Part shown: piece by piece, positions 4,037 to 44,677 of the stretch
Numbering within the stretch: position 1 is the first letter of the stretch
How the letters are laid out: every line of letters begins with the position of its first letter
DNA from: Emiliania huxleyi CCMP1516
Lineage: Eukaryota
Reading direction: 5' to 3'
Length of the DNA stretch: 57,072 nt
NCBI RefSeq assembly: GCF_000372725.1
Contig: NW_005201286.1
Span: forward strand, 292,105-349,176
Notes under the pieces: generated by a model
The model's input: the letters and a program-made list of their open reading frames with translations, nothing else
Told to the model about the DNA's origin: nothing
Databases searched by the model: none
Made by a program: the position numbers and the translations under genes

Positions 4037-5476
4037 CTACAGCCCCGGCGCCCACGCCTCGACCTTCTTGGGCAGCAGCTGGTTCGACAGGTCCTCTCCG
4101 TGGCCTAGGCAGCCGTGTTCGCCCTGGCCCCAGGCGAAGACAGCGCCGTCAGCGGTGATGGCGATGCTGTGGTCGATTCCCGCGGACACAGCGACGACGC
4201 GCCGCCCTTCCAGCGTCTCGACCTTCTTCGGCAGTAGCTGGTTCTGCTCGTCGCCGTGGCCCAGCTTGCCAAAGGTTCCCTGGCCCCAGCTCCAGACGGC
4301 GCCGTCGGTGGTGATGGCGAGGCTGTACGCGGTTCCAGCCGACACAGCGACCATGCGCTGGTCAGCCAACGCCTCCACCTTCTTCGGCAGCAGCTGGTCC
4401 TGCCGGTCGCCGTGGCCCAGCTGGCCATCCTCTCCTTCGCCCCAGCTCCAGACGCTGCCGTCGGCGGTGAGTGCGAGGCTGTTGCCGCCTGCAGCGCTGT
4501 GGCCGCCTCCAGCTGACACAGCGACGACGCGGTGGCCGGCAAAGGCCTCGACCTTCTTGGGCAGCAGCTGGATCTGCTGGTCGCCGTGGCCCAGCTGGCC
4601 CCACTCACCAAAGCCCCAGCTCCAGACAGCGCCATCGGCGGTGATTGCGAGGCTGTGGGCTGCTCCAGCCGACACAGCGACGACGCGGTGGCCAGGAAAG
4701 GCCTCGATCTTCTTGGGCAGCAGCTGGTTCTGCTCGTTGCCGTGGCCCAGCGGGCCACAGTCACCAAAGCCCCAGCTCCAGACAGAGCCGTTGGCGGTGA
4801 TGGCGAGACAGTGGTACGTTCCAGCCGACACAGCGACGACGCGCTGGCCAGCAAAGGCCTCGACCTTCTTTGGTTGCCACTGGTGCTGCCAGTCGCCGTG
4901 GCCCAACCGGCCAAAGCCTCCATCGCCCCAGCTCCAGACGGCGCCGTCGGCGGCGAGGGCCAGGCTGTGTTTGCGTCCCGCCGACACGCTCACGGCGCGC
5001 TCGCCGCCCAGGGAGGGGAGGAGGGTCGGCGTGTTGAGCTGCGTCACGCCCTCGCCGTGGCCGAGGAGGCATGGCTGCCCGCTCGCAGCCAAGCCGCACG
5101 ACGAGAGCCGCCCCTCGCCGTCGATGAAGACGCTGTGAGACTGGCCTGCCGCCGCCCTCGCCGGCGGGTTGGCCTCGCGCAGCAGCGCAGCGAAGCACAG
5201 CCACCGCACGGCGCAGTCCTCGCCCGCTGGCTGCGCCGGCAGCTCGAAGCCGCGCTCTTGCGCCCACAAGCGGATGGCCTCTACCGCGAGCGAGGCGTAA
5301 AAGAGCAGCGAGACGGCCGCGACGCGAGCGATGTCGGCGGGGTCGCAGCGAGAGAGGGCGCGCACGAGGAGCTCCGTCGGGAGGTCGAGGAGGCGGGCGG
5401 GCGGCGGCGTGTCTGGCGGGGGCGCGGCGGAGGCGGCGCCGGCGAGGCGGCGCGAGCGGCGCGGTGGGGTGGACAT
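4037..5476 (-). CDS. F-box-like N-terminus plus RCC1-repeat beta-propeller protein (~7 repeats)
   Basis: LLDLPTELLVRALSRC (F-box-like), then repeated VSAGxxHSLAxTADGAVWSWGxGxxGQLGHGD units. Intronless. Confidence 0.92.
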   Translation of the reverse strand: MSTPPRRSRRLAGAASAAPPPDTPPPARLLDLPTELLVRALSRCDPADIARVAAVSLLFYASLAVEAIRLWAQERGFELPAQPAGEDCAVRWLCFAALLREANPPARAAAGQSHSVFIDGEGRLSSCGLAASGQPCLLGHGEGVTQLNTPTLLPSLGGERAVSVSAGRKHSLALAADGAVWSWGDGGFGRLGHGDWQHQWQPKKVEAFAGQRVVAVSAGTYHCLAITANGSVWSWGFGDCGPLGHGNEQNQLLPKKIEAFPGHRVVAVSAGAAHSLAITADGAVWSWGFGEWGQLGHGDQQIQLLPKKVEAFAGHRVVAVSAGGGHSAAGGNSLALTADGSVWSWGEGEDGQLGHGDRQDQLLPKKVEALADQRMVAVSAGTAYSLAITTDGAVWSWGQGTFGKLGHGDEQNQLLPKKVETLEGRRVVAVSAGIDHSIAITADGAVFAWGQGEHGCLGHGEDLSNQLLPKKVEAWAPGL

Positions 5477-5779
5477 CGCGAGAAAAGAATTTCCAGCGTC
5501 CACAAAAGATTTTTCACTGCTTTTTCGTTGTCAGATATAGATATATTATCACGATGCATCCGAAGGGGACCCCAGCGCCGGCATCATCCGTAGAGGCACG
5601 AGTGTTCGAAGAGAGAGTGGACCTGAGCAACGATATGACCTGGAGGCAAATGATCGGAGTGGGAGTCAGAAATGTGGTCCTTGCGCGAGGGGAGCTCGAT
5701 AGACTCGAGGGGCCAGGATACGCCGCGAGGAGGACGGAGTTGCGCCGAAAGGCGAAAGAAAAGCCGCGAGAACAAGGGA

Positions 5780-26032: not shown

Positions 26033-26297
26033 GGTGTGTGGCCTCCGCGTGAAACAGCGGCGACAGGCGCTGCCTCTCGGGTTGATGATGGAATTCTTTT
26101 TCAGTGACCTGGTCGTCCGTCGTCATTACCTACTACTACTACTTGACGCTTTTCTTTCTTTCTTCCCGCTCAAAGCTCTTGCGGCGCATGAAATTACTCG
26201 TCCGGAGCGTTACACGCCGATATCCGCGCGGCGCGGGCCTCCTTCTCCCTCGAGCGACCCGTGAGGTGAGTCCAATCTCCAACATCGTCGGCAGCCG

Positions 26298-27362
26298 ATG
26301 CCGACGCCGCAGATTCCCAGCTGTCCAAGCTGGGATTGCTCGGTCCTGGGCCAGGTCTGCACGGAGGGCTCCGGCTACACCTGCTGCGCCGCGGTCCTCC
26401 CTGAGCACGTCGGTGACTGCTCGGGAAGCCTATGTTGGTTTGAAAACAGCGGCCTTCCCTCCGGAGAAGTCTGCTCCGCCTCGCCCGCAGTCCCACCGCC
26501 ATTGTTGCCACAGCTATCGCCGCCGCCACCGCCTGCGCTGCCACCGCCGCCGCCGCCGCTGCTGCCGCCGCTAGCACCAGGGCAGATTCCCAGCTGTCCA
26601 AGCTGGGACTGCTCGGTCTTGGGCCAGGTCTGCACGGAGGGCTCCGGCTACACCTGCTGCGCCGCGGCGAACGTCCCTGAAGACTGCTCGGGAATGTGTT
26701 GGTTTGACAACAGCGGCCTGCCCTCCGGAGAAGTCTGCTCCGCCTCGCCATGCTCAAATCACTGCCAGCTCAATACAACGATCATCATCGTCATGTCGGT
26801 GCTTGGGCTGCTGATCGCTATAGCGGGTATCCTAGTTTGCTTCTACATAGCGAGGAGGCGCAGAAGGCTCAGGCAGGTGGCACCACCCGGCTCGGCAGTG
26901 TCCCAACGCAAGGGCAGCGCCTGCGATGTGTTCGGCAGCTACAAGCAGAATGACGGCACAGACGGATTGCTGTTCAACCTCTTCTACACTCTGGAGATGA
27001 AAGGCATCGACCTCTGGCTCGACAAGAAGCGCGGGAGCGAGCGCAGCGAGGCGGGCATGCGGGCTGGCGTGCGGGCCTGCAAGCTGTTCTGCGCGGTCAT
27101 CTCGCCGAAATACTTTGAGTCAGCCTTCTGCCTTTTGGAGCTACGCACGGCGCTCTCCCACAAGAAGCCGATCGTTGTCTGCTTCAACAGCAGCAAGTTC
27201 ACGGTGCAGCAGGCGATGTCCTGGATCCCGGAGGAGTTCAGGGGGCGGCTGCTGAGCAATGAGGTTGTCGCGCTGCACGAGGACGACGAGTACATGCGGG
27301 TTGGTGTGGAGAAGGTCGCGGCGCAGCTCAGTCTGAGCTCGCCCGAGCAGTCACTCAGTTAA
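26298..27362 (+). CDS. Single-pass receptor-like protein: two Cys-rich repeats, Pro linker, TM and cytoplasmic TIR domain
   Basis: Near-identical repeats at 26309-26485 and 26582-26749 (CPSWDC...C...CC...C...CWF...C). TM IIIVMSVLGLLIAIAGILVCFYIA followed by RRRRR. TIR motifs: DVFGSY, LWLDK, VISPKYFESAFCLLEL, PIVV. Confidence 0.85.
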   Translation: MPTPQIPSCPSWDCSVLGQVCTEGSGYTCCAAVLPEHVGDCSGSLCWFENSGLPSGEVCSASPAVPPPLLPQLSPPPPPALPPPPPPLLPPLAPGQIPSCPSWDCSVLGQVCTEGSGYTCCAAANVPEDCSGMCWFDNSGLPSGEVCSASPCSNHCQLNTTIIIVMSVLGLLIAIAGILVCFYIARRRRRLRQVAPPGSAVSQRKGSACDVFGSYKQNDGTDGLLFNLFYTLEMKGIDLWLDKKRGSERSEAGMRAGVRACKLFCAVISPKYFESAFCLLELRTALSHKKPIVVCFNSSKFTVQQAMSWIPEEFRGRLLSNEVVALHEDDEYMRVGVEKVAAQLSLSSPEQSLS

Positions 27363-28076: not shown

Positions 28077-29396
28077 TTAAAGCAGCATGATGTCCTTCAC
28101 GTACTTGTTCTTGAGCTCAGCTTGGTCGAGCTTGAAGACGCGTCCAAAGCCGCGGTTGCCCCTGTTTTCGACCACGTTGGACTCGCCACCATAGTTGCTG
28201 CCACCGAGGACGATGTCAAGGTAGCCGCTTCCGTAGACGTCGCCCAAGGCGACCGCGCCGTCGGTACGAGGCCCGACCACTTGGTAGTAGTCAAAGAAGT
28301 CGTCGCCGTCGTGGGCGTCTGGCTTGTTCCAGAGCACCCAGTTGTCGTACGTGCCGCAAAAGACGACATCCGGGGCGCCGTCGCCGTCCATGTCGCCGAT
28401 CGCGAGGTCGGACCTGGTATCACAGACAGGAAGGTAGGTGGGTTATGGGTGAGCACATCAGTACGGGAAGGTTGTCGGTTGGTTTGCTGGGGTGGGGGGG
28501 GGGGGGGCGCACGAGCCAGAAGACGACCCAACTTTCGGGAGCTCGACAGAGGTGGTGAAATTGCCATCGCCCGGGTTGAGGAAGAGGATGTTGTTCTGCA
28601 GGTAGCACGCGAGCACGAGATCGAGGTGTCCGTCGCCGTTCATGTCGTGGAGGCCAATGGCGTTGACGTACTTCTCTGTGAGCGTGACCACGTCGAAGGT
28701 GCCGTCGCCGTTGTTCTTGAGCAGCTTCGCGCCCCCATACAGCTGGAATCCGAGGACGATGTCGTTCATGCCGTCGCCGGTCACGTCGCCAATAACGGCC
28801 GAGGTGCCATCCAACTCGCCGCCCGGCAGCACCACCGGCGCCTCAAAGACGGTGCCTCCCTTGCCGTACATGATGGACGACTCTTGTTTGGCGCCGTTGC
28901 TGCAGCCGTTGCCGTTGGCAAAGACGAGGTCGTCAAAGCCGTCCCCGTCCACGTCGCCGACGGCGACGCCGCACGTCGACAGCTTATCGGTGCCGTTCAG
29001 ATCAATCGGGTCGTCAAAGCCGCCGTCCCCGTTCCCGAGGAGGAGCTGGTTGGGTGCGTTGTCCCAGCCGGTGTAGCGGTTGCCGAGGAGCAGGTCTGGC
29101 GTCCCGTCGCCGTTGAAGTCGCCGCGCGCGACCGAGGTGGTCTCGAGCGCAGTGCCGGGCATTTCCTCTCCTGCAAAGCCGCCATTGCCGTCGTTGAGAA
29201 GCAGCACGTTGCTGGAGGAGCCGCCGGTGCCGAAGAAGAGATCGACGACCGGTGGTGGCAGCGGCGACGGAGACGGAGACGGAGAAGGGGAGGGCGACGG
29301 AGAGGGTGAACCCTCAGGGACTGAGGAGAACGCCGAAACGGAGGCCACAAGAAAAGGCACGAAGACGGAAAGCGAGCGCAGAGAGCGCATCACCAT
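28077..29396 (-). CDS. Secreted FG-GAP/VCBS-repeat protein; exons 29396-28513 and 28413-28077
   Basis: Signal peptide, (SP)n linker, repeated GDxxGDGxxDL and LLLNxGxGxF motifs. GT-AG intron 28512-28414 joins the two ORFs. Confidence 0.88.
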
Positions 29397-29547
29397 GGGT
29401 GGGAGTGATGGACCAACCAAAAGGCAGCGGGGTACCGAGGCGGTGGCGCCAGCGGGATTTTTCTTTTTTCTAAGAGAGAGAAAAGTCTTATCCTAACGGT
29501 GTGGGGGCGCGGAGGGCTTGTTGGCGAGCCAAAATGGTGTTTTCCGA

Positions 29548-29668
29548 GGCGCTGCGCTAGGCTCAGAGCGAGTTCGCGCTGCGCTAGGCTCAGACGGCGA
29601 GTTCGCGCTGCGCTAGGCCCAGACGGCGAGTTCGCGCTGCGCTAGGCTCACAGATGCGAGTGCGCTGC
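29548..29668. repeat. Tandem repeat of a ~29-bp unit (gcgctgcgctaggctcagacggcgagttc), ~4 copies
   Basis: Directly visible. It lies in the Helitron 3' subterminal region. Confidence 0.9.

Positions 29669-29744: not shown

Positions 29745-29810
<66 letters not shown>
29745..29810. repeat. (TGC)n microsatellite, ~22 units
   Basis: Directly visible just downstream of the RepHel stop. It produces the spurious polyA/polyC/polyL ORFs. Confidence 0.98.
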
Positions 29811-29854: not shown

Positions 29855-32800
29855 TTATGCGGCCTTTCCCGCGACCCGCACAAAGAAGAGGCGCCCTCCG
29901 TCAGCCTCGACCTGCCACCGGCTCGCGTCGACCGACCCGGCCGCGTGCCACACCTCCACAGCCCAGTGCGCCAGCCCGCAGAAGTTGCCCGTCGCCTCCT
30001 CGATGCCCCACCCCGTGGGCCACGCGGCCAAGGCGGTGCCGAGAGGCGGCGGCGGCGCCGCGGTCGCCTCGAGACGCGCCGCGACGGCGTCAAAGGCGAT
30101 CCGCCTCGCGCCCGTCGCGGCCGCCTCGGCCAGCAGCGCCTCCCCGGCCAGCCGCGGGAGGTCGCCCTCCGTCTCGAACCAGCACGACGAGCGGCCGTCG
30201 GCGCACGCCTCGTCCCACGCCTTGAGCTGGCGGACAAAGGCCGCCAAGCTCTTGAGGTGTGCATACTTGCGCTCGGTGTGCGCGCTCGCCATCTTCAGCC
30301 GCGCGTCCTCCCACCGCCGGCTCGCCATGCCGGGCGCGCTGTTGACGTACCTGCGACGGAAGGGGGGGGGGGGGGGAGCTCAAGCGACACGCGTCGCGAG
30401 CCAGGAACACAGAGCCCCGCACGTGATCCGGTCGGCGTCGATCGCCTCGCCCAGCGCCCAGTCCGAGTCCTTCTCGACGCGCGAGAAGAGCGTGTAAATG
30501 AGGCCGAGGAACAGCTTCTCCATCGAGATGTGGTTGGCGACGTGCGCGATCATGAACTCGACGTCCTTGCTGTCGCCGAAGCTCCCCCCCTGGGTCTTGT
30601 GCGCGACCGTCGCGTACCCCGCGCGCAGAGGCACGCCCGTGCGCGTCGCGTGCCTAGATCGTCACTGCACCAAAGTCAGGGCGCGAGCACTCACGGTGAC
30701 GAGCAAAGTCGGGCATCGAATTCACGGGGCTGCGAGTTTTGCCGATGCGGCCAAATGCAGTGTGCGCTCTCGAGTGCTAGTCGGAATGCACGGATCTGTA
30801 TTCTTTATCTAAGGCTGCGTTCCCGGCGCGCTGGCCCGTCGCGCCCGACTCGTCCTTGCTGAAGCTGCGGTTGACTGGAACGGGGACCCACTTCTCGCGG
30901 CCAGCGCCGCGAAAGAAAGCGGGGCCGTCGTAGGCCGGAAAGCTGACGACGGCGGCGACCGGAAAGTGCTGCGGAGGCTGCTCGCCGGGCTTGAAGAGGA
31001 AGGCGACGATCGTCCCCCGCGCGCCGTTGTTGAGCTTGAAGAAGACGCACTGGTTCTTGGTCAACACGGTGGGCGAGCCCACCGCGCCCAGGAAGGTGCG
31101 AGGGATCTGGCCAACCTCCTTATCGGGGCCTTTGGGGGGCTGGCCCTGCGTCTCGGAGGGCACCACACACACGGGGTGTTCCGTCGCCTTGCGATGCTCC
31201 TGCAGCCGCTGCGCGTTCATCTCGTTGGTTGGCGCCCACGTCTCGTAGACGTCGAGGACGCGCTTGCCCGCGGCGGCCTGCCGCTCGGCTGCCGGCAGCC
31301 GGTGCCAGAGGCGCGACATGCACTGCTGCCAGTGCTCCTGCGTCGCCTATGGTATTCGAAGAGGGCCGGTCGGTCCTGAGGGCACGCGCCGTGCTCTGTG
31401 TGACGCCAGCGCTCGCGCGTCGCCTCGCCGCGGCGGATGGCGAGGAGGCGCGCGAGCAGCGCCGCCTGGTCCGGCCCCTGGCGCATGGTCTCGTCGAGCA
31501 CGATCACGTCAAAGCCCTGGCGGCGCAGCTGCCAGCCGCGCTGCGCGATCGGGCCGCGCGACGAGCCCGGCTCGAGGTGCGCGCCGCCACCCTCGGAGGC
31601 GGGCAGCTGCCCGTGGTCGCCGCACAAGTTGGCGGCGGGGACGCCGCCAAACGAAGTCAGCTGGCGGGCGGACGGCGGCAGAGACGAGAGGCACGCCTGG
31701 CCCAGCCGCGCGTCGATCCACGCGATGTCCTCGGACGAGATCATACCGTCCTCGTCCAAGTTGAAGACGCGAGCCGCGCGCCTGCCGCGCTCGCCGGTCA
31801 GCCGCCGCAGCCGGTCCATCGGCTGCGCCCCGAGGGGCGCGTCGTGGACTGTGAAGGTGGCGCGGTGCTTGCGCGGCACCTCGCCGGCCGGCGTGATCGA
31901 GTGCCACGTCCGCCCCCCCGGGTTAAGCACCGCCGCCGACCCTGTGGGGGCGGCGTTGATCACCGCCAGGTTGTCGTTGAAGAGCCGGCGCGCAAAGAGG
32001 GTTACTCCCTACCAGAGAGGTGCGCCGTCCCAGGTCGGCCGAGGTGCGGCCGAGGCGCGGCCGAGGCGCGGCCGAGGCGCGGCCGAGAAGCGGACCTTCA
32101 CGACGAAGGACTTGCCGACGCCGGCCGTCCCAAAGATCTTGAGCCGGCTCTGAATCGGATACTCGTCCTCGTTCTCCGCAAGGCCGCCCTTCGCCTCGGC
32201 CGCACGCTCTCGCTCCCAGGCGTCAAGAAGCGCCTCAAAGTTGATGCTGAGGGCGAGACGCTGCAGCGCGTTGGCGCGGAAGAAGGAGGGCAGACGAGGC
32301 AGCGTCGCGCCCTCGCCCTGGCGGATGAACTCGCCCGCTTTCTCGCGCCCGGCAAGCGAATCAAGAGCCTGCCCGATCCCCGCCACCGCCTCCCAGTCGA
32401 GCACCGGTCCGCCGTCCGCGTTGAGGCACTGGATGCCGTAGTCGTGCCACGAGGTAGCCCACTCGGGAAGCCTGCAGTCCTCCGCATCGATGGTGCCGAG
32501 GTCGCCGTCGTCGGCTGCCGCCTCGAGCCCAGCCTCACCGAGCGCTCGCGCCTGCGCGTCCACCTCCTCCGCAAACCCCTGCCTCCACTCGCCCCTGTCG
32601 TCGCCGTCCGAGTCAGACTCGTTCCAAGCGGCCCCTGCACCGCCGGCGGCGAGGCCGTCGCCAGGCGAGGCGCCGTCGTGACCGCCGCCCGGGCGCGCCC
32701 GCCCGCGGGCAGCCTTCGCCGCCTCGGCCGCCGCCTTGCGCTCTGCACGTCGCCGCGCCCCCTCCACCTCCTCACGCACCATTCGGATGCGGCCGGCGCG

Positions 32801-35800
32801 GGTGGGGTCGGGCGGAAGCCCCTCCGACTCGAACACGGGCCCCGTGAGGACAACGTCGTCCGGCAGGAGGAAGGCCTGCCCCGTCTGCAGGCCCTCGGGC
32901 GGCGCCGCGCCGGCCGCCAGCGGAACCGCCTGCACCGGCCGCCTGCACCGGCCATCCGAGGCGCGCGGGTCGGCCACTTGCTGTACAGCCTCGCCTGGCG
33001 GCGCGTTGGAGGGAGCGCGCAGGCCAGCGTAGGGCTGCGTCGGCGGCAGGCGGCCATACCCCTCCGTGGAGGCGGAGGCCACCGGCGCCTCGTCGCCGCC
33101 CTCGCCGCCGCCCTCGCCGGGCTCGCGAGACCGCAGAGCTGGCGGCGCCGAGGGATCGCCAGCGGCGCCACCGGAGGCCGCCGGCATCGAGGCCGGCGGC
33201 GTCGACGACGGCGCCGGCCCTGAACGTCCCAGAAGCACCTCGTCGGAGTCGCCGCTGCGGCAGAAGCAGCCGTAGAGTCCCGGCGCAATCTCGATCTCGC
33301 GGATGTCCTGCATGACGAGATCGTCGAAGCGGCCGAGCACCAGCCTCGCCTCCATGGGCCACTCCGACGAGCCCCATCTGCGCACAAAGACGCGCAGGGT
33401 GTCCGACGCGAGCTGTCGGGTCTCGCGCCGCTCCTCCTCCGGCTCGCCCGGAGCCTCGAGCGCGACAGCGGCGGCCAGCAGCGTCTCGGCCTTCGCCGCG
33501 CTGAAGCGCTGTCCATTCACTCCATGGAGTGGGAGCAGCGAGATGCCAAAGAGCATCAGGCCGAGGTCGTAGTAGATCGCGACGCCCTCATCTGCGTCGT
33601 CGCAGAGGACTACACGCGGCCAGCGGGGGACCAGCTCGGCCTGCTGGCCCGCCGCTGGGTAGCGGAAGATGAGGTACCCGTCTCTCCTGGCCCGCAGCGC
33701 CGCCACCACGCGGTCCGTCGCCCGCTGGCGCGCGTGCCGCTCCGCGGCGCTGTCGGGGGCGCGACACCGGACCGTGCCGATGTAGCGGCCTCCGCCCGGC
33801 GGTGGCGACGGCAAGCGGGTGGCCGCGGCGAGGTCCGGCGCCGCCGGCGCCTCGAGATCCATCGGCTGGTTGCCGACCTTGGCACGAGGCGCATCGTCGG
33901 TGCCGCGGTCGGCGTCGCCGCCTCCGGTGGCAGCAGCGCTGGAGCCGGCGCCGGCGCCGGTGGCAGCTCCGGCGGTGCCGCGGCCGGGCGGAGGCGGCAG
34001 CGCGTCGACGGCGACGCCAAAGAACTCTCCAAAGGCCTCGCGGAACGAGCTGCAGCCGGACTTGAGGTCGTCAGCCACGAGCCAGTGCCCCGGCGCGTGA
34101 ATCCGTAGCTGGTCCCGGCAGTACTCCTCCTCAAGCGGCCAGCTCGGAAAGCAGAGGTGGCCGGTGAAGACGGGAAAGTGCGAGTGGCCGCAGCCGCACT
34201 TGTCGCCGCAGCGCGAGACCCAGTCGAAGAGCGAGATGTGCGGCGCCTCGGCGCGACGCTCGGGGGAGAGAAAGCGCTGCAGCGGCGTCTTCTTGGCGAG
34301 CGGCGCCTCCTCGTCCGTCGCGTCTCTGTCGAGCATGCGCCACCCGCTGAGGCCGCAGAAGTTGTGGCGGCGCGTGCAGCGGACGAGGGGGATGCCGAGG
34401 AGGATGACGTCGCAGCAGTGCACCGGCCAGTCGACCATCCCGACAGCGCGGCGGAGCAGCGAGCGCGCCAGCGCGCGCACGCTCGAGTTTGCGTCGGCGG
34501 CCTTTGCGAGGTCGGCGTAGACCTTGATCAGATCGTCGGTCGAAGCGGCGCCCTTGCAGCAGTACTCGTTGAGATAGCGGTCGAGCGCCTCGCACTTCTC
34601 CTCGAGGACGAGCTGCGTGTCCGAATTGCCGCCCCAATCTTCGAGCACGCACCGGATGTGCTGGATGAGGAAAGGGTTCGCGCGAGGCCCCGCCACGCGC
34701 GGGTGCTCGGCCGAGCCCTCGAGCCGCGGCTCCGCGTGCAGCTGCTTGCCGGCGCCGCACTTGGCAACCTCGTCAAAGTCGCCGAAATGGAAGCGGCAGG
34801 AGCGCTTGCGGTAGCGCTGCCCCGCGACGCCCGTGCCGCCGTCGCCGTCGTCACGCTTGCGCTTTCCCGCGCCGCGCAGCCGCACCAGCGGGCCGAGGCA
34901 CGTCGGCGTGCAGCGATGATGCGCCACGGTGCGAACGAGCTTGAAGTAGCGGCGCTCGCGCCCGCGCAGCCCGCCGCGCGCCACCTCGCCGAGCACGGTC
35001 GTCTTGAGCGCCAGCTTGGCTGCCGCCGGGTCGTCGTCGCCCGCCTGGAGCAGCGGGGGCGCCAGCGAAACGTAGCCGGGGCTGGGGGGCGAGGGGGTGG
35101 CAGCCGCCGCCGGTGCCGCATTGGGAGCCGAAGGAGTGCCGAGCGGGGCGGCGTCGCCCTCGTCGAGCGGGGGCGCGGGCGGAGGCCTCCCGTGTCGACC
35201 GCCGGCGCCACCGCCCGAGCCGGCGCCGGCGGCGCGGCGTGGCGGGGCGACCGCTGCGGAGCCAGCAGCGGCAGGAGCGAGGCGGTGGCCGGCGGCGCGG
35301 CGTGGCGGGGCGACCGCTGCGGAGCCAGCAGCGGCAGGAGCGAGGCGGTGGCCGGCGGCGCGGCGTGGCGGGGCGACCGCTGCGGAGCCAGCAGCGGCAG
35401 GAGCGAGGCGGTGGGAAAGTGTCGCAGCAGCGCGTGGCACTGTAGCCGATCCCAGCCAGCCCCACGTCGCCAGCCCGGCGTCCGGCAGGCTGGGGATGCC
35501 GCTTACGGGCGTGGTCACTATGCCGAGGAGTCCGGGGCGCTGCTGCCCGAGTTTCTGTGCCATCCCCCCCCCGAGAATGAACTGGCCATCGTCGAGCGAG
35601 GCGTTGCTCCGGTTGGCGCCCCACACGAAAACGTTGTCGGCTGAGGCCTCGCTGGCGTCGAGCCAAGCCGTGAAGCGCACCCGCCGCGGGCCGAAGAGAC
35701 TGCGAAGAGCACGAGCCCGCTCCCCGATGAACGCGACGAGCAGCTCGAGCGCGCCGGCGCCGTGCGCCCCCCACTGCCTCCTGGCGTGATTGCTACCGAG

Positions 35801-38800
35801 CGCCGTGCGCTCAACCGACCCGGGGAAGGTCACAACGGCAGCGGGGCGCGCCTCCATGTGCGATTGGAGCGCCGCGAAGCGGCCGCGGTTGAAGTCGATA
35901 AACGGCTGCACCAGGGCCGGGGGGTCGGCCGCCTGCGGCGGCGCACCCGTCGGCGCGGCGGCGCACACTCCAGGGCCTGCAGCAGCGGCGGGCGCGGCTG
36001 GCGACGGAGGGGAGGCGGCAGCGGCGGCGGCGGCGGAGGGGCGTGGCGGCGGCGCTGCTCGCATCAGACGCGCGATCAGAGGATCGCTCCGCGCGAGTCC
36101 CATGATCGGCGGCGGCGGAGACGACGGCGAGCCCGGAGGCGACGGAGGCAGGGACGGAGGCAGCGCGCCCGCGAGCGAAGACGCCCCCGCGAGCGAGCCC
36201 GAAGGCGGGCCGGCCTGAAGCAGCCTGGCCGAGCGACGGACGCCGGCCGAGGCACCGGCGGCCGAGGCGCCGGCGGCCGAGGCGCCGCCCCGCCCGCGCT
36301 TCTGGCCGCCCCGGCCGCCCCGCCCCGTCGGGGCCGAGCGAGCGCGCCGCCGCGCTGCGGGGGCACCCGGAGCCGGGGCATCCGGGGCATCCGGATGCGG
36401 CGCGCCCCCCGCCCCGTCCGCGGCTCCGGGGCCCGACATCCACCCCCAGAGCGCTTCCGCGGCGCGCGAGGCCGCGGCCTGGCTCTCCGGGGTCTTGTCG
36501 AAGAGCTCGTTGACGCTGCAGCCGGTCGAGGCGAGGAGCTTCTCACGCTGCGCGTGGTGCGAGAAGGACATCGCAAGCCCGTGCGCGTGCGCAGCGCCGC
36601 GGCCCTTTGCAAACTCGAGGCGCCACCACGCGTCGTCGTACTCGAGGACCTCGCGGAGCACAGTGCTCCAGAAGTTGACCGTGCGCGCGTCGAAGTACGC
36701 GACGACGACGTGCGAACACTCGAGCAGCAGGTTGCGTGCCCTGTCGGGCGACAGCAGCTCGGCCGCCCCCTCCGCGCCGCGTGTGGCCCAGACGTACTCC
36801 TCGAGGAGGGCGCGCATCTGCGGCCAGTGGAACTCCGCCATCGAGTTGGTCTGAAAGTAAGTCGGCACGTCGCCGTGCGCCGCCCGACGGAACTGCTGCA
36901 GCGCGCGGAGCTTGGTGTGTTCTCCGCGCCAGTACATTGGCGAATTTTTGAGGTTCGCGCCGATCGAGAGGATCTTGCGGGGGACAGACTCGTCCCCCGC
37001 CTCGAGGGCCTGCACAAGCTCGGGCACCGTACGGTGTGCCTCCGCCAGCTGCTGGGAGACGCAGTAGCCGGCCTGCTGCGACGCCTTGAGCCGCATCAGA
37101 AGATTAGTGAGGTGGATCTTGAGCACGGCGCCAAGCCGCCCATCCGCCGCAAAGACGAGATGCGAGACGGCGACGGAGAAGTCGACCTTCCGCAGCCGCG
37201 GCACCGTCGGGTCGCCGGAGCCCGCGACAAACACCGTCGGGTAGCACATCCCGAAGAAGCCCTCCGTCGCGAGCTCGCGCACCGGCGCCCCCGAGCTGCG
37301 AACCCAGTCAGCGCTGCCGACGCCGGCGCCGGCAAAGAGGGCGTCTGCCTTGGCGCTGTCACCGTCGAGCAAGTCGAGGACGAGGCGGCGCACCTGCGGG
37401 CCGGAAGCGAGTGGCGTCGGCGCAAGCAAGGAGTGGGCTAGGGCACGCGAGGCTCCGCGGCGGCACCTCGGCATCGGCGTCCTTGGAGTCGATCGGGGAG
37501 ACCAGCCCCGAGTGGCTCACCGAGCCGTCCCCGTCGACCTCGGGCGGGAGCTCATTCTGCGCCGGGGCGGGACCGCCCTCCTCCTCCTCCTCCTCGGCCG
37601 CGCCGGCGGCGCGCGCCGGCTTCTCGTGCACGGGCAGCCCAGGCAGCTCGGCGCGCTCCTCTGGCACGGCCTGCTGCCTTTGCTGCGACATCACGACGTC
37701 GGAGTAGTACCGGTTGGGGATGTGAAGGAACCAGCGGCCGCTGAGCCGCTCGCCGGAGGGGAGGTCGGGGCCGGAGTACCGCTCCCAGTCGGCGGATGCG
37801 GAGTAGAGAGCTCGCACATCATACACGTCTACGAAGTAGCTGTCGACGGTCGGCCGGTGCGGCGAGCCGCCCGGCGGGTCGCCGCGCACGAGGCCGGTCA
37901 GCGCGCCCTGCACCGATCGCCTATCCGCCGCGAAAGCGCGCCCACCGTCGTGGCGCGCGCCCGCCTTGCGCAGGATGATGAGGCCCAGCTCGCTCGCGTG
38001 CCGAGGCAGCTCGCGCGCCACCTTGAACATGTCGTTTGGTAACGTCGTGCAGCTGCCGGCGGACGAAAGCATGCCGCCCGACATCCTCCTGATGCGCATC
38101 ACGGGGATGATCCGCGCGATCAGCATGCTCTCGACCTGCGACAGGCACTTGAGCCATGACGGGGCGACGCGGAGGTGCATGTCGTTGTGCCGCATAGCGT
38201 CTGCGGGCGGCCCGAGGTCGTCCGGCAGGACGGTGCGCACACCCGAGAAGAGCTGGCAGCGGCCGCGCGACTCGCGGCGCCGGTGCTTCCGGCAGTCGGT
38301 GCACACGTAGAGCAGGCGACGGAGGTGGCGCCAAGCCAGCTCATCAGGCGACGCGCGCCACACGCTGAGCGAAACGGGCGGCGTGCCTTCCGGCCGGAGC
38401 GGCGGCTCCACGGCCGGAGTGCACATTAACATCGGACGGCACGTGTCGCAGACGTGGCAGCGCCTGCGGCACTGGGCGGCGCAAGAGTGAGGGGGACGGG
38501 TGCACTCGCCGCACCGCCGCCGCACCGCTCAACGCGCACCGGACGCGGTGCAGCTGCTCGCCGGCCTCAAAGGCGACGCCCGCCTCGCGCACGCGCGGGT
38601 TGGAGTGGGCGGAGGCGTCGCCGAGCACGCGGTCGATGGCCTCGTCGCACACTTCAAAGCCGCCGCTGACGAGGGGTGGAGGGAAGGGGACGGAGGAAAT
38701 GGTCGGATGCGATGGTGGCGGCTGAGAGCGAGGGCTAGTGGCGGTGGCTATGGTGGCCTCTCCGCCCGGGGAGAAGAGCGCATCATGCAGGGCGTGGTGT

Positions 38801-39680
38801 GCTAGACGTGAGCGGCACATATGTGTGTGCCCGTCGCCGTCAGCGGCTCCGTCGGGGACGGCAGCCCGGCGGATGCCGTCGCCGCCGGCCGGCGTCGACG
38901 ACCCGAAGACAGTGCGCAGCTCGCGGTCGCGGAGCGACAGCTGGCAGCCTGCCCACTGCGCTCCGAGTCGTTGCCGCAGCACGCGGAGGTTGCCGACGTA
39001 CGAGAGCAGAGTGGCGTCGGTGTGCGTCACCTTGTAGCGCGAGACGGCGACTACGCAACCGAGGGAAAGGGGGGGGGGGGGGTGAGCAAGCACCGCCGGC
39101 GTGCAGCGAAACGGGGCGAGCGTGCGCGACCCTGACGCTCGGCGCGAGGCGGCGTCTCCTCTCCGCCCTCCATCAGGTAGAGCGCGGCGGCCCACGAGCG
39201 GAGAGAGGCCTCATCGAGCCGGTCGGAAGCGACCGAGCTCGTCACCACCCCGGTCGCCTGCGCGTGCTCGTACGCGTCTCGTGCGACCTGCCTCGCGGCC
39301 AGTCCAAAGAAGTCCCTCGTCGTCGCGCCGGCGGCCGCCGCCGCCGGCAGTGGAGGCGGGTCGACGTGCGGCTGCGGCTGCGGCGGCGGCGGCGGCGGCG
39401 GCGGCGGCAACCCCGCAGCGGAAGCGGCCGGCCCGGTCGGCGGTGGCGGAGGGAAAACGGTAGCGACTCCGCCCGGCGGCAGCGGCACCACCGCATCCGC
39501 GCCACCACCGTCGGCGAATTGCTGACGGCAGCGCTCCAAGACGCGAGAGCCACCGGGCCGGCCTCCAACGCCGAGCGGGCGCGGAGGAGTGTTGCCGACG
39601 TCCGAGAGCGCAGTGCGTTGTCGCGGCGAGCCTCCGCCGCCACCTCCGCCGCAGGCGTGCGGCCCGCTCGACTGTGACAT
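29855..39680 (-). CDS. Helitron RepHel transposase: Zn-finger/DUF6570-like region, HUH Rep and PIF1-family helicase; about 8 spliceosomal introns
   Basis: DUF6570-like VESMLIARIIP..LPR..NRYYSDV (~37.7-38.15 kb). YPTVFVAG; SPMYW; PTYFQTNS..HWP; EFAKGRGAAHAH (~36590); YLNEYCCK (~34560). Walker A GTAGVGKS (~32120), APTGSAA, LDEDGM, FGG..GDHGQLP, MRQ, NGARG, HKTQG, YTLFSRV. Introns include 37466-37394, 32095-32009 and 31423-31347. Confidence 0.9.
35228..35413. repeat. 63-bp tandem repeat x3 inside the RepHel ORF (AAGHRLAPAAAGSAAVAPPRR)
   Basis: Three near-identical in-frame units. Confidence 0.9.
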
Positions 39681-39809: not shown

Positions 39810-40511
39810 ATGGCAGCCTCCAGCGACCTGCAGGCTCTGCAGCTTGAGAATCGGAACCTGCAGCAAAAGCTCGACTGGAAGCAGCTCAAGATCAACGAGC
39901 TCGAGACGAAAGTTCGCGATCTCCGCGGTGGCGGCCTCGCCGCCGACCTCGGGCGCATCGAGCGGTCCATCGGCCGCCTCTCGCTGCAGATGGAGCACGT
40001 CCAGCTCGTCATCAAGAAGCCGGAGTGGTCGTTTCACACCTTTGCGATGCCGGAGAAGACCGCCTCCTCGGCGCACACCATCTTTGTCCGGCCGCCCAGC
40101 GGGGACCGGATCGAGGTCACCATTCCGCCGGGCAAGCAGCCCGGCGAGGTCTTCACCGTCATGCTCAAGGACGAGGACGCGTACCCGCCGGACTGGCCGT
40201 GGCACGCGGCGCCGCCCGCGGCGCCCGCGCACTCCGCGCCGCCGCCGTGGGCGGAGGAGCAGCAGCAGGAGGAGGAGGGCGAGGACGGGGAGGAGGGCGC
40301 AGGCGAGGAAGGCGCAGACGAGGCGGCCCTCCGGAAGAAAGCCAAGGCAAAGGCCGATGTCGAGCGGCGCAAGGAGCAGCGGCACGCCGCAGCCGCGGCG
40401 GCAGGCCGCGTGCCCGGCCAGCATGGCAACCCAAACTGCCGCGCGCGGCCGGCAGAGCCGGAGGGAGGCGCGGCAGGAGGTCCCTCCTCCTCGCGCATGG
40501 CTGTGGAGTGA
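39810..40511 (+). CDS. Hypothetical coiled-coil protein with a VTIPPGKQPGEVFTV beta-motif, divergent from RepHel inside the element
   Basis: Protein-like 233-aa ORF with GC3-rich codons and a heptad-rich N-terminus. Its ATG is 130 bp from the RepHel ATG. Confidence 0.65.
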   Translation: MAASSDLQALQLENRNLQQKLDWKQLKINELETKVRDLRGGGLAADLGRIERSIGRLSLQMEHVQLVIKKPEWSFHTFAMPEKTASSAHTIFVRPPSGDRIEVTIPPGKQPGEVFTVMLKDEDAYPPDWPWHAAPPAAPAHSAPPPWAEEQQQEEEGEDGEEGAGEEGADEAALRKKAKAKADVERRKEQRHAAAAAAGRVPGQHGNPNCRARPAEPEGGAAGGPSSSRMAVE

Positions 40512-41243: not shown

Positions 41244-42340
41244 TTTACACCACACGGCCCTGCGTGGCCGCGGGAAGGGTGTTGGTTGAGACGCGGGGCG
41301 ACTGCGGACTGGGTGGGCGGGGCGAGGGCGGAGGGGCGGAGCAGCGACGCGCGCGCGACGGAGGGGCGGAGCAGCGACCGCTGGCGCGGTCGCTGCTCCG
41401 TCTGTGCCAGAGACACGCGCTCTGCCCCTCCACAGAGCGCGCGTGAGGCAAGGTGGGGGCAAGCGTGGCGGCGCGGGGACGCGCGGCGGCGGCGGCGAGC
41501 ATCCGAGCGCTCCGTGCGCGGTGAGGCGGCCGGGCGAGGGCGCGGCGGGCGACGGGGCAAGGGAGCAGCCGGGCGAGGAGAGGTAGGAGGTGCTCGCCGG
41601 CGAGCGCTCCCGCGCCTGCGAAGGGGCAAGGCCTGAGGGCGGGCGGGCGGGCGGGCGGGCGGGCGCGGGTGGGGGGGATAAACGCTGCGCCGCCAAAGGA
41701 ACCAGCGACACTGGCCGCGGCTCGTCGCCACGCGCCGGCTCGGAAGAGGGGCTGTCGGCGGCGAAGCAGAGTGGCACGCCTCGCCGCTCGAGCCGCCGAC
41801 AGCCCCCCTCCTCGACGTGACGGCCGCTCCCGGAGCCGGCCGGTGCGCGCCCGACCCACGCCCCCTCTCGCACCCCTCCGACCCCCCCTGCGCGGCGCAC
41901 CCGTCCGCTGTGCGCCGGCTCGAGCGCCTATTGCCAAATCGCGACGTTTGAGCGCAGCGCACGCATCCTCTGGGCGCCTGAGCGCGGCGGAATCTTGCCA
42001 GAATGTGGCCGCAGGAAGAGCCTCCGGCGGGCCTCCGGCGGACGCCTGGCGGCGTGGCGCTGCGCGCCGGCCTGCGGCCCAAAGCCCGAACGAGCGGTCA
42101 AGTTAACTTGACGCGCCGAATCCCTTGGTTGGCCCTCGCAGCTGTGATACAAAAGTGGGGACGCGCCTGGCGGCGCGCCCCCAAAAAAAGAGCCGATGAA
42201 TGCGCACGGCTAGCGTCAGCTGTCATCCCTCACTGGGGTTGTCCGTTATTTATTTTTCTTTTTTCAGCCGTCACGACTTATTTGCGCCTGCATACCTCCA
42301 ATTTCTTTTCCGCGGCCCATGGGTAATTCTTTTCCTCGCG

Positions 42341-43416
42341 ATGTCGCTCGCGCATGAACGTACACATATGCGCCACGCCGCCTCGGCCTCCACCGCCGCC
42401 CCCTCGCCAGACACGCCGCCGCCCGCCCGCCTCCTCGACCTCCCCACGGAGCTCCTCCTGCGCGCCCTCTCTCGCTGCGACCCCGCCGACATCGCTCGCG
42501 TCGCGGCTGTCTCGCTGCTCTTCCACGCCTCGCTCGCGGAGCAGGGCATCCGCTTGTGGGCGCAAGAGCGCGGCTACGAGCTTCCGGCGCTGCCAGAGGG
42601 CGAGGGCTGCGCCGTGCGGTGGCTGTGCTATTTGGCGCTGCTGTGCGAGTCCAACCCGCCGGCGAGGGCGGCGGCAGGCTCCTCCTACAGCGTCTTCATC
42701 GACGGCGAGGGGCGGCTCTCGTCGTGCGGCTACGCGCCGCCTTTCTATCCAGGACTACTCGGGCACGGTGAGGGGGTGACGCGGCTCAACACGCCGACCC
42801 GCCTCCCGTCGACGCTGGGCGGTGAGCGCGTCGTGAGCGTGTCGGCGGGAGGATGCCACAGCCTCGCCCTCACCGGCGGCGGTAGCGTCTGGAGCTGGGG
42901 CCATGGAGGGGATGGCGAGCTGGGCCACGGCGACCTGCAGGACCAGTGGCAGCCGACGGAGGTGGAGGCCTTCGCTGAACGGCGCGTCGTCGCTGTCTCG
43001 GCTGGAGCCCGCCACAGCCTCGCCCTCACCGCCGACGGCGCCGTCTGGAGCTGGGGCTGGGGAGCCGGTGGCCAGCTGGGCCTCGGCGACCGGCAAACCC
43101 AGTGGCAGCCCACGAAGCTCGAGGCCTTAGCTGACCAGCGCGTCCTCGTCGTATCGGCAGGACGCGAACACAGCTTCGCCCTCACCGCGGACGGTAGCGT
43201 CTGGAGCTGGGGCATGGGAGCCCAAGGCCGGCTGGGCCACGGCGACCAGGAGCACCAGCTGCTGCCCAAGAAGGTCGAGGCCTTGGCAGGCCAGCGCGTC
43301 ATCGCTGTGTCGGCGGGAGGCGAACACAGCCTCACCCTCACCGCCGACGGAAGTGTCTGGAGCTGGGGCTTTGGAGTCGAAGGCCAGCTGGGCCACGGCG
43401 ACATGCAGAACCAACT
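42341..43416 (+). pseudogene. Truncated paralogue of the F-box-like/RCC1 gene
   Basis: Highly similar to 4037-5476, but homology stops at ...GDMQNQL (43416) after ~5 repeats. The ORF continues through unrelated sequence to 43636. Confidence 0.7.
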
Positions 43417-44677
43417 GGCGGGAGAGAAGCCGGGGGGGACCTCACTGGTGTCGAGCGGGCGGATGGCTTCTTGCCACCCGCTCAGGAGGCTTCGTTGTGT
43501 TCCCCCCGTCCGCCAGCGAGACTGGCTCAGTCGCTGGCGGCCGCAGTCTTCTGTGAGGGGCGACTTTGCGCTGGCCACTGCTCGCGCGGTCCTGACTGAC
43601 ATCGGGCGTGACTGCTGCTGCGGCTGGCTCCTCTAGCGCCTGCAGAGAGTCCAGAGAGTCTCATCAGAGACGCACCGGACGCGTTGCTACGTGTGCCAGC
43701 CGCTTCTGGCCTTCTATTCGTGGTTGTGCATGTGTCATGTGATAGGGTGACGAAGGACCGCGGTGGGGTGGGGGCGGAGGCGCCGGCGGCGCGCACACCC
43801 CGCCCGCACACGCCGTCGCCGCAGGCCCACTCCACGCTCCATATTTTCCAATACATAAGAGAGAGTACGTACATATAAGAACAGGAGGCTGGCACTACGC
43901 TCTGTCAATCTGGCGAGAGCTCGAGAGGGGACGGCTCTCGGCTGACCTGTACAGACTACGGCCCTCTACAGAGCACGGTGCACAGTGTCAGTGTCATGTC
44001 TCATGTCACATGTGTGCGGACCCCGTGCAGTCACTACTGACTCGGACTCAAGGAATTTGAGAGATTGCTCTCGCTGATCCACACACTGAGCGCTATTTGT
44101 AGACGAGAGGTTCAAAAGACGAACGGGTTCTTCGGCAACAGTCGGCTCGATGGCCAAACCGTGCCACCAAACTTCCCGATGTGCTGCTGCTTGGTGGCAA
44201 CGGCTCGGCCCAGGAGGTAGGAGGCCATTGCCGTAGTAGAGACGAGCAGCGCGTTCAAGTGCGAGGTGGGCATATTGTGACCTGCGTTGGTTGGGGTCGC
44301 ACGTGAGTGGAGCGGCAGCGGGAAAGTGGCGTGCGTGCTCAGGTGAGCGTCGTCGTGGCGAATGTCATGACTGGTGGTGTGGTGATGGTATGAGCGTCGT
44401 TTGTTTGGCTGCTGCCGGCGTGTGGTGGCAGTTGTGGCGCTGAAGCAGAGGCCGCTGCGGTGAGGGCTCTCCTTAGCGACACGCGCTGAGAGCAAGGATG
44501 ACAGGGGTATAGAAACTTCGGCCCTTTTATGATCAAACGCAGCGGGGTTTATTTTCTTCGCGCGGTGCCTCAAATCCGAGCACCTTTGGCAGGGACGAAT
44601 AGGTGTGTGTGTGTACGATGTCCGCGTCAGGACAGCGCGACCACCGCAAGGTTGATCGCGCCGCACCCTACATTACC

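Follow-up and report, generated by a model that had tools for sequence, protein, structure and literature searches.

The RepHel gene of an HLE2-type Helitron in Emiliania huxleyi CCMP1516 carries an extra globular domain within its Rep nuclease, between the HUH and tyrosine motifs. The gene lies on the minus strand of the 57,072-nucleotide stretch analysed here (contig NW_005201286.1, positions 292,105 to 349,176; hereafter the window, numbered from its first letter). This island is a real domain, predicted with confidence to fold, and is exonic and in frame within a transcribed transposase gene. On balance we favour the reading that it is an accessory domain of a permuted DUF7831-related family, likely of DarG/TARG1-type descent, which, tethered to Rep, most likely binds ADP-ribose without catalytic activity, with the present copy probably weakened or retuned.

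An initial annotation, made from the letters of the window and its open reading frames, had pointed to a macro-like domain lying in low-complexity linkers between the HUH and tyrosine motifs of Rep. The motifs that it quoted are all found, in the order that it gave, in a 1835-residue frame (32009..37516, minus strand): VVTFP..ALG comes first (35836-35783), followed by VWGAN (35612-35626), GGGMA and GIVTTP (35507-35524). The placement holds as well. The island is in frame between HAH (36581-36589), the HUH motif which, as read from the sequence, closes the N-terminal half of Rep, and YLNEY (34553-34576), and the nuclease is split by ~460 residues between its metal-binding (HUH) and tyrosine motifs. 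The island has a hydrophobic fraction of ~0.2-0.35 and an entropy of ~3.4-3.7 bits, whereas the cores of the flanking linkers drop to 2.4-2.8 bits. The folded domain, 35492-35923, extends slightly past the 35507..35918 first proposed. Its GC content at the three codon positions (0.72/0.54/0.85) is like that of the Rep cores and unlike that of the linkers, so the island is coding-like and adapted to its host. An AlphaFold model based on 109 sequences (predicted local distance difference test score, pLDDT, 92.5; predicted template modelling score, pTM, 0.88) shows a helix at residues 3-27, a strand at 32-38, a helix at 48-79, strands at 84-87 and 99-105, a helix at 123-127 and a strand at 134-138. 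The best fold match to this model in BFVD was the 'WWE domain-containing protein' A0A5B8IHI9 of the giant virus ChoanoV1 (E 3e-8, TM score 0.78, root-mean-square deviation 2.0). This multi-domain protein is like the island both in fold and in permuted order, and the record shown gives the matching domain no name.

The RepHel gene is intact and transcribed. Of the public sequencing runs listed, 16/19 contain this stretch, and the evidence from RNA consists of contigs, not reads, from two RNA runs (X11 and X12) of one study. The spliced frame runs from an ATG at 39680 to a stop at 29855 with all the Rep and Pif1-type motifs present. Five introns are spanned on both sides by RNA contigs (30351-30422, 30654-30822, 31347-31423, 37394-37466 and 39051-39130), while for two further introns, 32009-32095 and 38464-about 38533, RNA gives the acceptor and the donor was deduced. 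Over the island, 35385-36004 is unspliced in one X11 contig and is covered in X12 by two abutting contigs, which answers the question of whether the segment is exonic. RNA contig depth is 30-40 over the island, 37-38 on the tyrosine side and 45-70 on the HUH side. The RNA contigs have no coverage at 35012-35220 and ~36040-36311, in GC-rich linkers, which indicates neither an intron nor absence. No credible joint that skips the island was found in the RNA contigs. The only joints that could splice it out, from 35294 or 35357 to 36333, have 21-nucleotide sides and unrelated loose ends and are present in DNA runs too, and were therefore rejected as chance GC-rich matches. Marine metatranscriptome runs gave small shares and short pieces only and were not used as evidence. 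A one-nucleotide deletion in a nine-G run at 35580 is present in one DNA run and not in three others. DNA contig depth across 34900-36700 is higher on the HUH side than over the island (132 versus 33 in X7, 91 versus 52 in X1); this unevenness could stem from truncated or insert-free sister copies, and depth here is not a copy number. Two of the RNA-supported introns, 30654-30822 and 31347-31423 on the minus strand, both in the helicase, have GA-AG and GC-AG ends. Such non-canonical donors, with the high GC and the N gaps of the stretch, would fit a haptophyte alga.

That the island is a domain in its own right follows from its family. An unindexed HMMER search of 1.84 billion cluster representatives recovered 103 family representatives at E<=1e-3 (20 at E<=1e-10), and 81/103 run across the domain with its parts in the same order. 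The island is recovered at 99 bits (E 7e-32) by a profile from which this copy was left out, as the sole match in the six frames of the window. Searches of Pfam, PHROGs and NCBIfam with the island gave nothing useful (no Pfam match at E<=1), a word-indexed homolog search found none and tblastn against phages returned noise only; a match to CbiG at E 0.1-0.2 was likewise rejected as noise. A motif scan yielded 13 viral loci (8 labelled as giant-virus metagenome-assembled genomes, MAGs), 46 loci from metagenomes and 3 contigs from bacterial MAGs, and 60/62 of these match the family profile. The permuted family is unnamed, has no Pfam model and is common to Helitrons, giant viruses and a few bacteria. 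When the domain context of 140 family proteins was scanned (near-duplicates included), ADP-ribose-related partners were found in four (PARG in two, NADAR in one and a weak WWE in one) and deubiquitinase partners (OTU, Josephin or UCH) in 12; most carry nothing known. Among large virus-like proteins, P0023 has three tandem copies of the domain with Josephin, L438/L442 have the domain with UCH and PARG, and L467 has it with NADAR and DUF1810.

The expectation that related Helitrons would carry the domain was borne out in part: it recurs in other Helitrons, but there after the helicase and not inside Rep. The clearest case, L453, is a full DUF6570 - Helitron_like_N - Pif1 element with the domain directly after the helicase and a Rep that lacks it. 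The same arrangement is found in three more loci, and a helicase tail precedes the domain in eight proteins from six clusters. None of the 137 proteins checked has Rep flanks like those of this element, so the position inside Rep is seen only here. Because the position differs between Helitrons, the domain may have been captured as mobile cargo more than once, or relocated. In L453:881-6370 (minus strand), the ~400 residues after the domain look by eye like a UCH-like cysteine peptidase, with no Pfam match.

The closest relative of the family is DUF7831 (Pfam PF25176; PHROG 2072), phage proteins of unknown function that are common in Caulobacter and Rhizobium phages (88 records). An Atlas pointer from the island to DUF7831 served as a starting lead only. 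For the comparison 120 phage loci were fetched by motif, of which 107 were used, and 5/5 tested were confirmed as PF25176. In HHalign the two families match crosswise, island 6-78 to DUF7831 67-127 (P 87-88%) and island 94-140 to DUF7831 15-52 (P 82-84%). When the island profile is re-ordered it matches DUF7831 with a P of 96.3% and a score of 56.6 over 107 columns, against 73.6% and 33.4 over 59 columns in native order; 40 column-shuffled templates score <=21.1, and the optimal cut for the re-ordering is at island ~81-91. The motifs correspond (FGDN to WGAN, GGQA to GxGQA, GIPTK to GIVTTP and GIGTGLA to LGxGLA), with the order FGDN - GGQA - GIPTK - GTGLA in DUF7831 and the halves swapped in the island family. 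Both the circular permutation and the kinship with phage proteins of the VFVFGxN..GG.A..GIPT type (DUF7831/PF25176, and A1S_2505, considered below), which had been suggested from motifs, are thus upheld by profile-profile matches. The island family differs in an 8-residue insert after the Asn, in the loss of the TK lysine, and in its setting: it belongs to mobile elements of eukaryotes and to giant viruses, for the most part within large proteins, where DUF7831 is a phage family. A hidden Markov model of DUF7831 from the 107 members scores the island at <1 bit, and the PF25176 cut-off is not reached. By these profile comparisons the island family is a permuted sister family of DUF7831, not a member of it. 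An arrangement as two tandem A1S-like half-units was rejected: the likeness LGSNHA..GAHG is not conserved (the consensus of the relatives is LGxGLA..QW) and the two halves map to different halves of DUF7831.

The link to macrodomains is reached through a chain. DUF7831 matches A1S_2505 (NCBIfam NF049995) with a P of 95.2%, and A1S_2505 matches a DarG/TARG1-like profile with a P of 95.6% over 102 columns, so that A1S_2505 bridges DUF7831 and the DarG-like macrodomains at 95% each; DUF7831 matches the DarG-like profile directly at 72.8%. The DarG-like set was anchored to the solved DarG and TARG1 (PDB 5m31, 4j5r) and, as a positive control, its profile finds MacroD at 96.3%. Between the A1S_2505 and DarG-like profiles, three motifs (N..G.G.GxA, xxPTK and PxxGxGxxG) align in order. 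A1S_2505 is not permuted, and compared directly with the island family it does not rise above noise (P 7%, score 21, null maximum 22). From the island itself, the first half matches the DarG-like profile with a P of 44% (E 2.4e-4), placing LGxGLAxxQW on LGCGxGGLdW, and the whole domain scores 24 against a null maximum of 16. Several points qualify this link: the direct matches between island and macrodomain are weak, at 16-44% over 38-47 columns, the model has four strands of at least three residues where a macrodomain core is a six-stranded mixed sheet, and there was no macrodomain among the matches listed in PDB fold searches, which align in sequence order and so could miss a permuted one. 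Because of the weak direct match and the fold searches, the label macro-like is to be read as putative. The macro-like identity first proposed finds indirect support in the profile chain; the fold searches gave no sign of it. Macrodomain ancestry through the chain island - DUF7831 - A1S_2505 - DarG/TARG1 nevertheless seems quite probable. Atlas neighbours of DUF7831, namely A1S_2505 and a cluster with 11% Macro, were treated as leads only. DUF7831 and A1S_2505, both unannotated phage families, can each be aligned with macrodomains of the DarG/TARG1 type and retain the catalytic-lysine motif xxPTK, and are candidate phage anti-DarT proteins or ADP-ribose hydrolases.

DarG and TARG1 (OARD1) are ADP-ribosylhydrolases, and the roles of N22, K80, G117 and G119 given for DarG in the accessible text of PMC5179494 were mapped onto the island. 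In that text, K80A is inactive and G119E strongly lowers activity. The island family appears to share with DarG/TARG1 the N22 equivalent, the glycine loop after the second strand, and an LG-x-G loop followed by a Trp. The equivalent of N22, island N106, is kept in 102/108 relatives and in this copy, as are G120 and G122 of the glycine loop, at 97-99% in the family. G117 corresponds to G45 (Gly in 95/98 relatives, kept here) and G119 to position 47, which is Gly in 87/98 relatives and Asn in this copy. K80 corresponds to T140, which is Thr in 90/106 family members and Lys in none, while the equivalent lysine is present in 92% of DUF7831; the new chain ends of the permuted domain fall just after this position. 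Compared with DarG/TARG1 the family is permuted, has fewer strands in its model, is without the K80 equivalent and has a separate conserved pair, His13 (86/90 relatives) and Arg17 (89/90). Because the K80 position is Thr, we infer no hydrolysis of the TARG1 type. The suggestion that the module is an enzyme countering ADP-ribosylation is not supported in that form, since the catalytic lysine is Thr in most family members and this copy alters a glycine of the ligand loop.

This copy is also divergent. It carries H13F, G47N, G87T, G92A, Q123M and F135L, and its changes at 6/28 conserved sites rank it fourth-worst of 94. Its branch is the longest of 93 in a quick tree with mostly open forks, from which 16/109 rows with many gaps were excluded and which supports no claim on a donor or on the sequence of events. 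Its ligand binding is perhaps weakened or changed. It is nevertheless identical to its relatives at 22/27 conserved columns versus 26-36% of other columns (p<=3e-5), and only two family columns are absent. Conserved columns are thus kept far above background, and this copy has therefore been under constraint.

From these residues we take the domain, unless shown otherwise, to be a binder; the chief alternative is a rebuilt enzyme. In the favoured reading, a pocket for ADP-ribose would be built from the VWGAN strand, the GxGxA loop and the LGxG loop, and the long flexible linkers would let Rep fold around the insert. Rolling-circle transposition produces nicks, displaced single strands and phosphotyrosine links (PMC6213432, accessible text), and ADP-ribosylation also occurs on DNA, where TARG1 reverses it in human cells (PMC8501950, accessible text), so a tethered reader could act at the site of transposition. 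The module may bind ADP-ribose marks laid by the host on nicked or single-stranded DNA or on nearby proteins, and once bound it may help the transposase to remain at, or to shield, the marked sites.

A bolder reading, which we regard as no better than tentative, is that of an undescribed permuted macrodomain family with its own His/Arg/Asn site, common to giant viruses, large bacterial proteins and several algal Helitron lineages, and recruited by Helitrons more than once, here in the middle of a nuclease, to counter host ADP-ribosylation. If true, it would suggest that microbial eukaryotes use ADP-ribosylation to defend themselves against transposons. That the domain actively removes the host's ADP-ribosylation is conceivable, though unsupported.

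It seems unlikely that this copy is a passenger, derived from another Helitron tail or from a host or viral gene and lodged in a tolerant Rep loop, with ligand binding lost and the domain folded and in frame only because the transposase frame must stay open. The long branch and the altered conserved sites would fit such a history, as would the finding that none of the 137 proteins has another copy inside Rep and that the Rep of L453 lacks the domain; captured domains are moreover thought non-essential in the accessible text of PMC11417382. The conserved columns kept far above background speak otherwise, since they include N106, N109, R17 and the glycine loop, which do not look structural, and no more than the two family columns are missing. 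We also doubt that the family actively erases or processes ADP-ribose through a rebuilt site, in which His13, Arg17, Asn106, Asn109 and Trp53/Trp103 replace the lost lysine and by which Helitrons and giant viruses strip host ADP-ribosylation from DNA ends or proteins. The near-invariance of H13 and R17 is of the polar kind typical of enzymes, there are the fusions with PARG and NADAR hydrolases, and the TARG1 reaction on DNA offers a precedent; set against these are the family-wide absence of the K80 equivalent, the effects of K80A and G119E in DarG, and H13F with G47N in this copy. Least probable, and in our view highly so, is that the branch of DUF7831 and A1S_2505, with its permuted sister, has lost its tie to ADP-ribose or only looks like such proteins, and binds another nucleotide, a phosphate-bearing ligand or nucleic acid: the points listed above that qualify the macrodomain link would suit it, GxGTG loops are common phosphate grips and the DUF7831 profile weakly matches triosephosphate isomerase (E ~0.08), yet the three ordered motifs align A1S_2505 with the DarG-like profile and the family is fused to PARG, NADAR and WWE proteins.

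Accessory domains of Helitron-like elements given in the accessible text of PMC11417382 are OTU, EN, RPA, UCH, 2OG-FeII and DUF6570. The island is like these in being captured by an HLE2-type element, in the RepHel frame, and in belonging to the kind of domain that is common to viruses too. The extras described there sit upstream or downstream of RepHel, whereas the island interrupts the Rep nuclease itself, falling between the metal-binding and tyrosine motifs. A macro-like domain is not named among the captured domains in that text, and in the accessible part of its supplement two of the three occurrences of 'macro' are species names. Our literature search, in which subscription papers and bioRxiv supplements lay outside the scope, found no paper naming DUF7831 and none describing a macrodomain in Helitrons, and novelty is for that reason provisional. 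The one entry in which Helitrons came up together with a macro domain is an Arabidopsis chromatin preprint, and A1S_2505 came up in two Acinetobacter papers. Broader searches returned no description of the permuted family; it is unmentioned in the accessible portions of the viral Macro domain papers PMC9503650 and PMC7824862, and those of PMC12487901, PMC6431247 and bioRxiv 2021.11.30.470311 hold nothing on it. Within the partial texts examined, this is a domain class new to Helitron cargo. The analysis opens three families without annotation (the permuted one, DUF7831 and A1S_2505) to study at the level of the fold, and adds a circular permutation found in nature that escapes standard Pfam and Foldseek searches. 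It also shows a Rep nuclease interrupted by ~460 residues in a gene that is intact and expressed. Should the domain bind or remove ADP-ribose, a 16-kDa protein would allow a direct test of whether hosts turn ADP-ribosylation against rolling-circle transposons and giant viruses.

Table 1. Features of the RepHel gene and of the island domain, in window coordinates.
Feature	Position	Strand	Basis and remarks
Helitron (HLE2-type) RepHel gene	29855..39680	minus	8-exon model, ~3,065 aa, without stop or frameshift
DUF6570 region (HLE2 marker)	37977..38186	minus	Pfam PF20209, E 2.5e-9, above cut-off
Helitron_like_N (Rep N-terminal half)	36575..37117	minus	PF14214, E 1.1e-5, 26.1 bits, slightly below the 28.9 cut-off
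Ala/Pro/Gly low-complexity linker, ~170 aa	35930..36436	minus	entropy profile; GC 0.83, without coding-type codon-position skew
Circularly permuted DUF7831-related (macro-like) domain, ~144 aa	35492..35923	minus	family profile, AlphaFold model, HHalign
First domain half: helix, strand, LG-x-G loop (LGSNHA 35783-35800), helix	35693..35923	minus	corresponds to C-terminal half of DUF7831/DarG
Second domain half: RVRF strand, VWGAN strand, GGGMA loop and helix, GIVTTP strand	35507..35680	minus	corresponds to N-terminal half of DUF7831/DarG
Low-complexity linker, ~140-145 aa	35072..35491	minus	entropy profile
Rep His/Cys cluster HHRC..C..CRFHF	34784..34921	minus	read from sequence
Rep catalytic tyrosine motif YLNEYCCK (YxxxYxxK)	34553..34576	minus	read from sequence
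Pif1-type helicase	30476..32131	minus	Walker A (GTAGVGKS) through motif VI present after splicing

The element has the make-up of an HLE2 RepHel, with a HUH and two-tyrosine Rep joined to a Pif1 helicase in one frame and DUF6570 upstream. The His/Cys cluster presumably corresponds to the Helitron Rep motif that it resembles, the tyrosine motif follows the YxxxYxxK consensus, and the helicase motifs run from Walker A to motif VI. Taken singly, the helicase exons have no Pfam match. The order HUH, two-tyrosine, helicase is that of Helitrons in the accessible text of PMC6213432, and DUF6570 is HLE2-specific according to that of PMC11417382. Between the candidate end regions there is no inverted match over 11 nucleotides, and the ends of the element were not located. 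The linker on the tyrosine side of the island contains three perfect in-frame 63-bp repeats (35225-35414), present as a single copy in one DNA contig. A second globular island of ~200 residues (33260-33856, minus strand), also surrounded by low-complexity linkers, lies in the same RepHel between Rep and the helicase and has no Pfam match. Directly downstream of the RepHel stop, at 29549-29654 and 29745-29810, are four 29-bp repeats and a CTG run.

Host-like neighbours at 4040-5530, 42200-43633, 26265-27359 and 28461-29492 comprise two F-box/RCC1 genes, a TIR_2 gene and an FG-GAP repeat gene. A 233-residue gene (39810-40511, plus strand) with a coiled-coil start and an acidic/basic tail lies divergent to RepHel, 130 bp from its start, and may belong to the Helitron element. 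RNA contigs differ from this gene at many sites, which suggests related copies.

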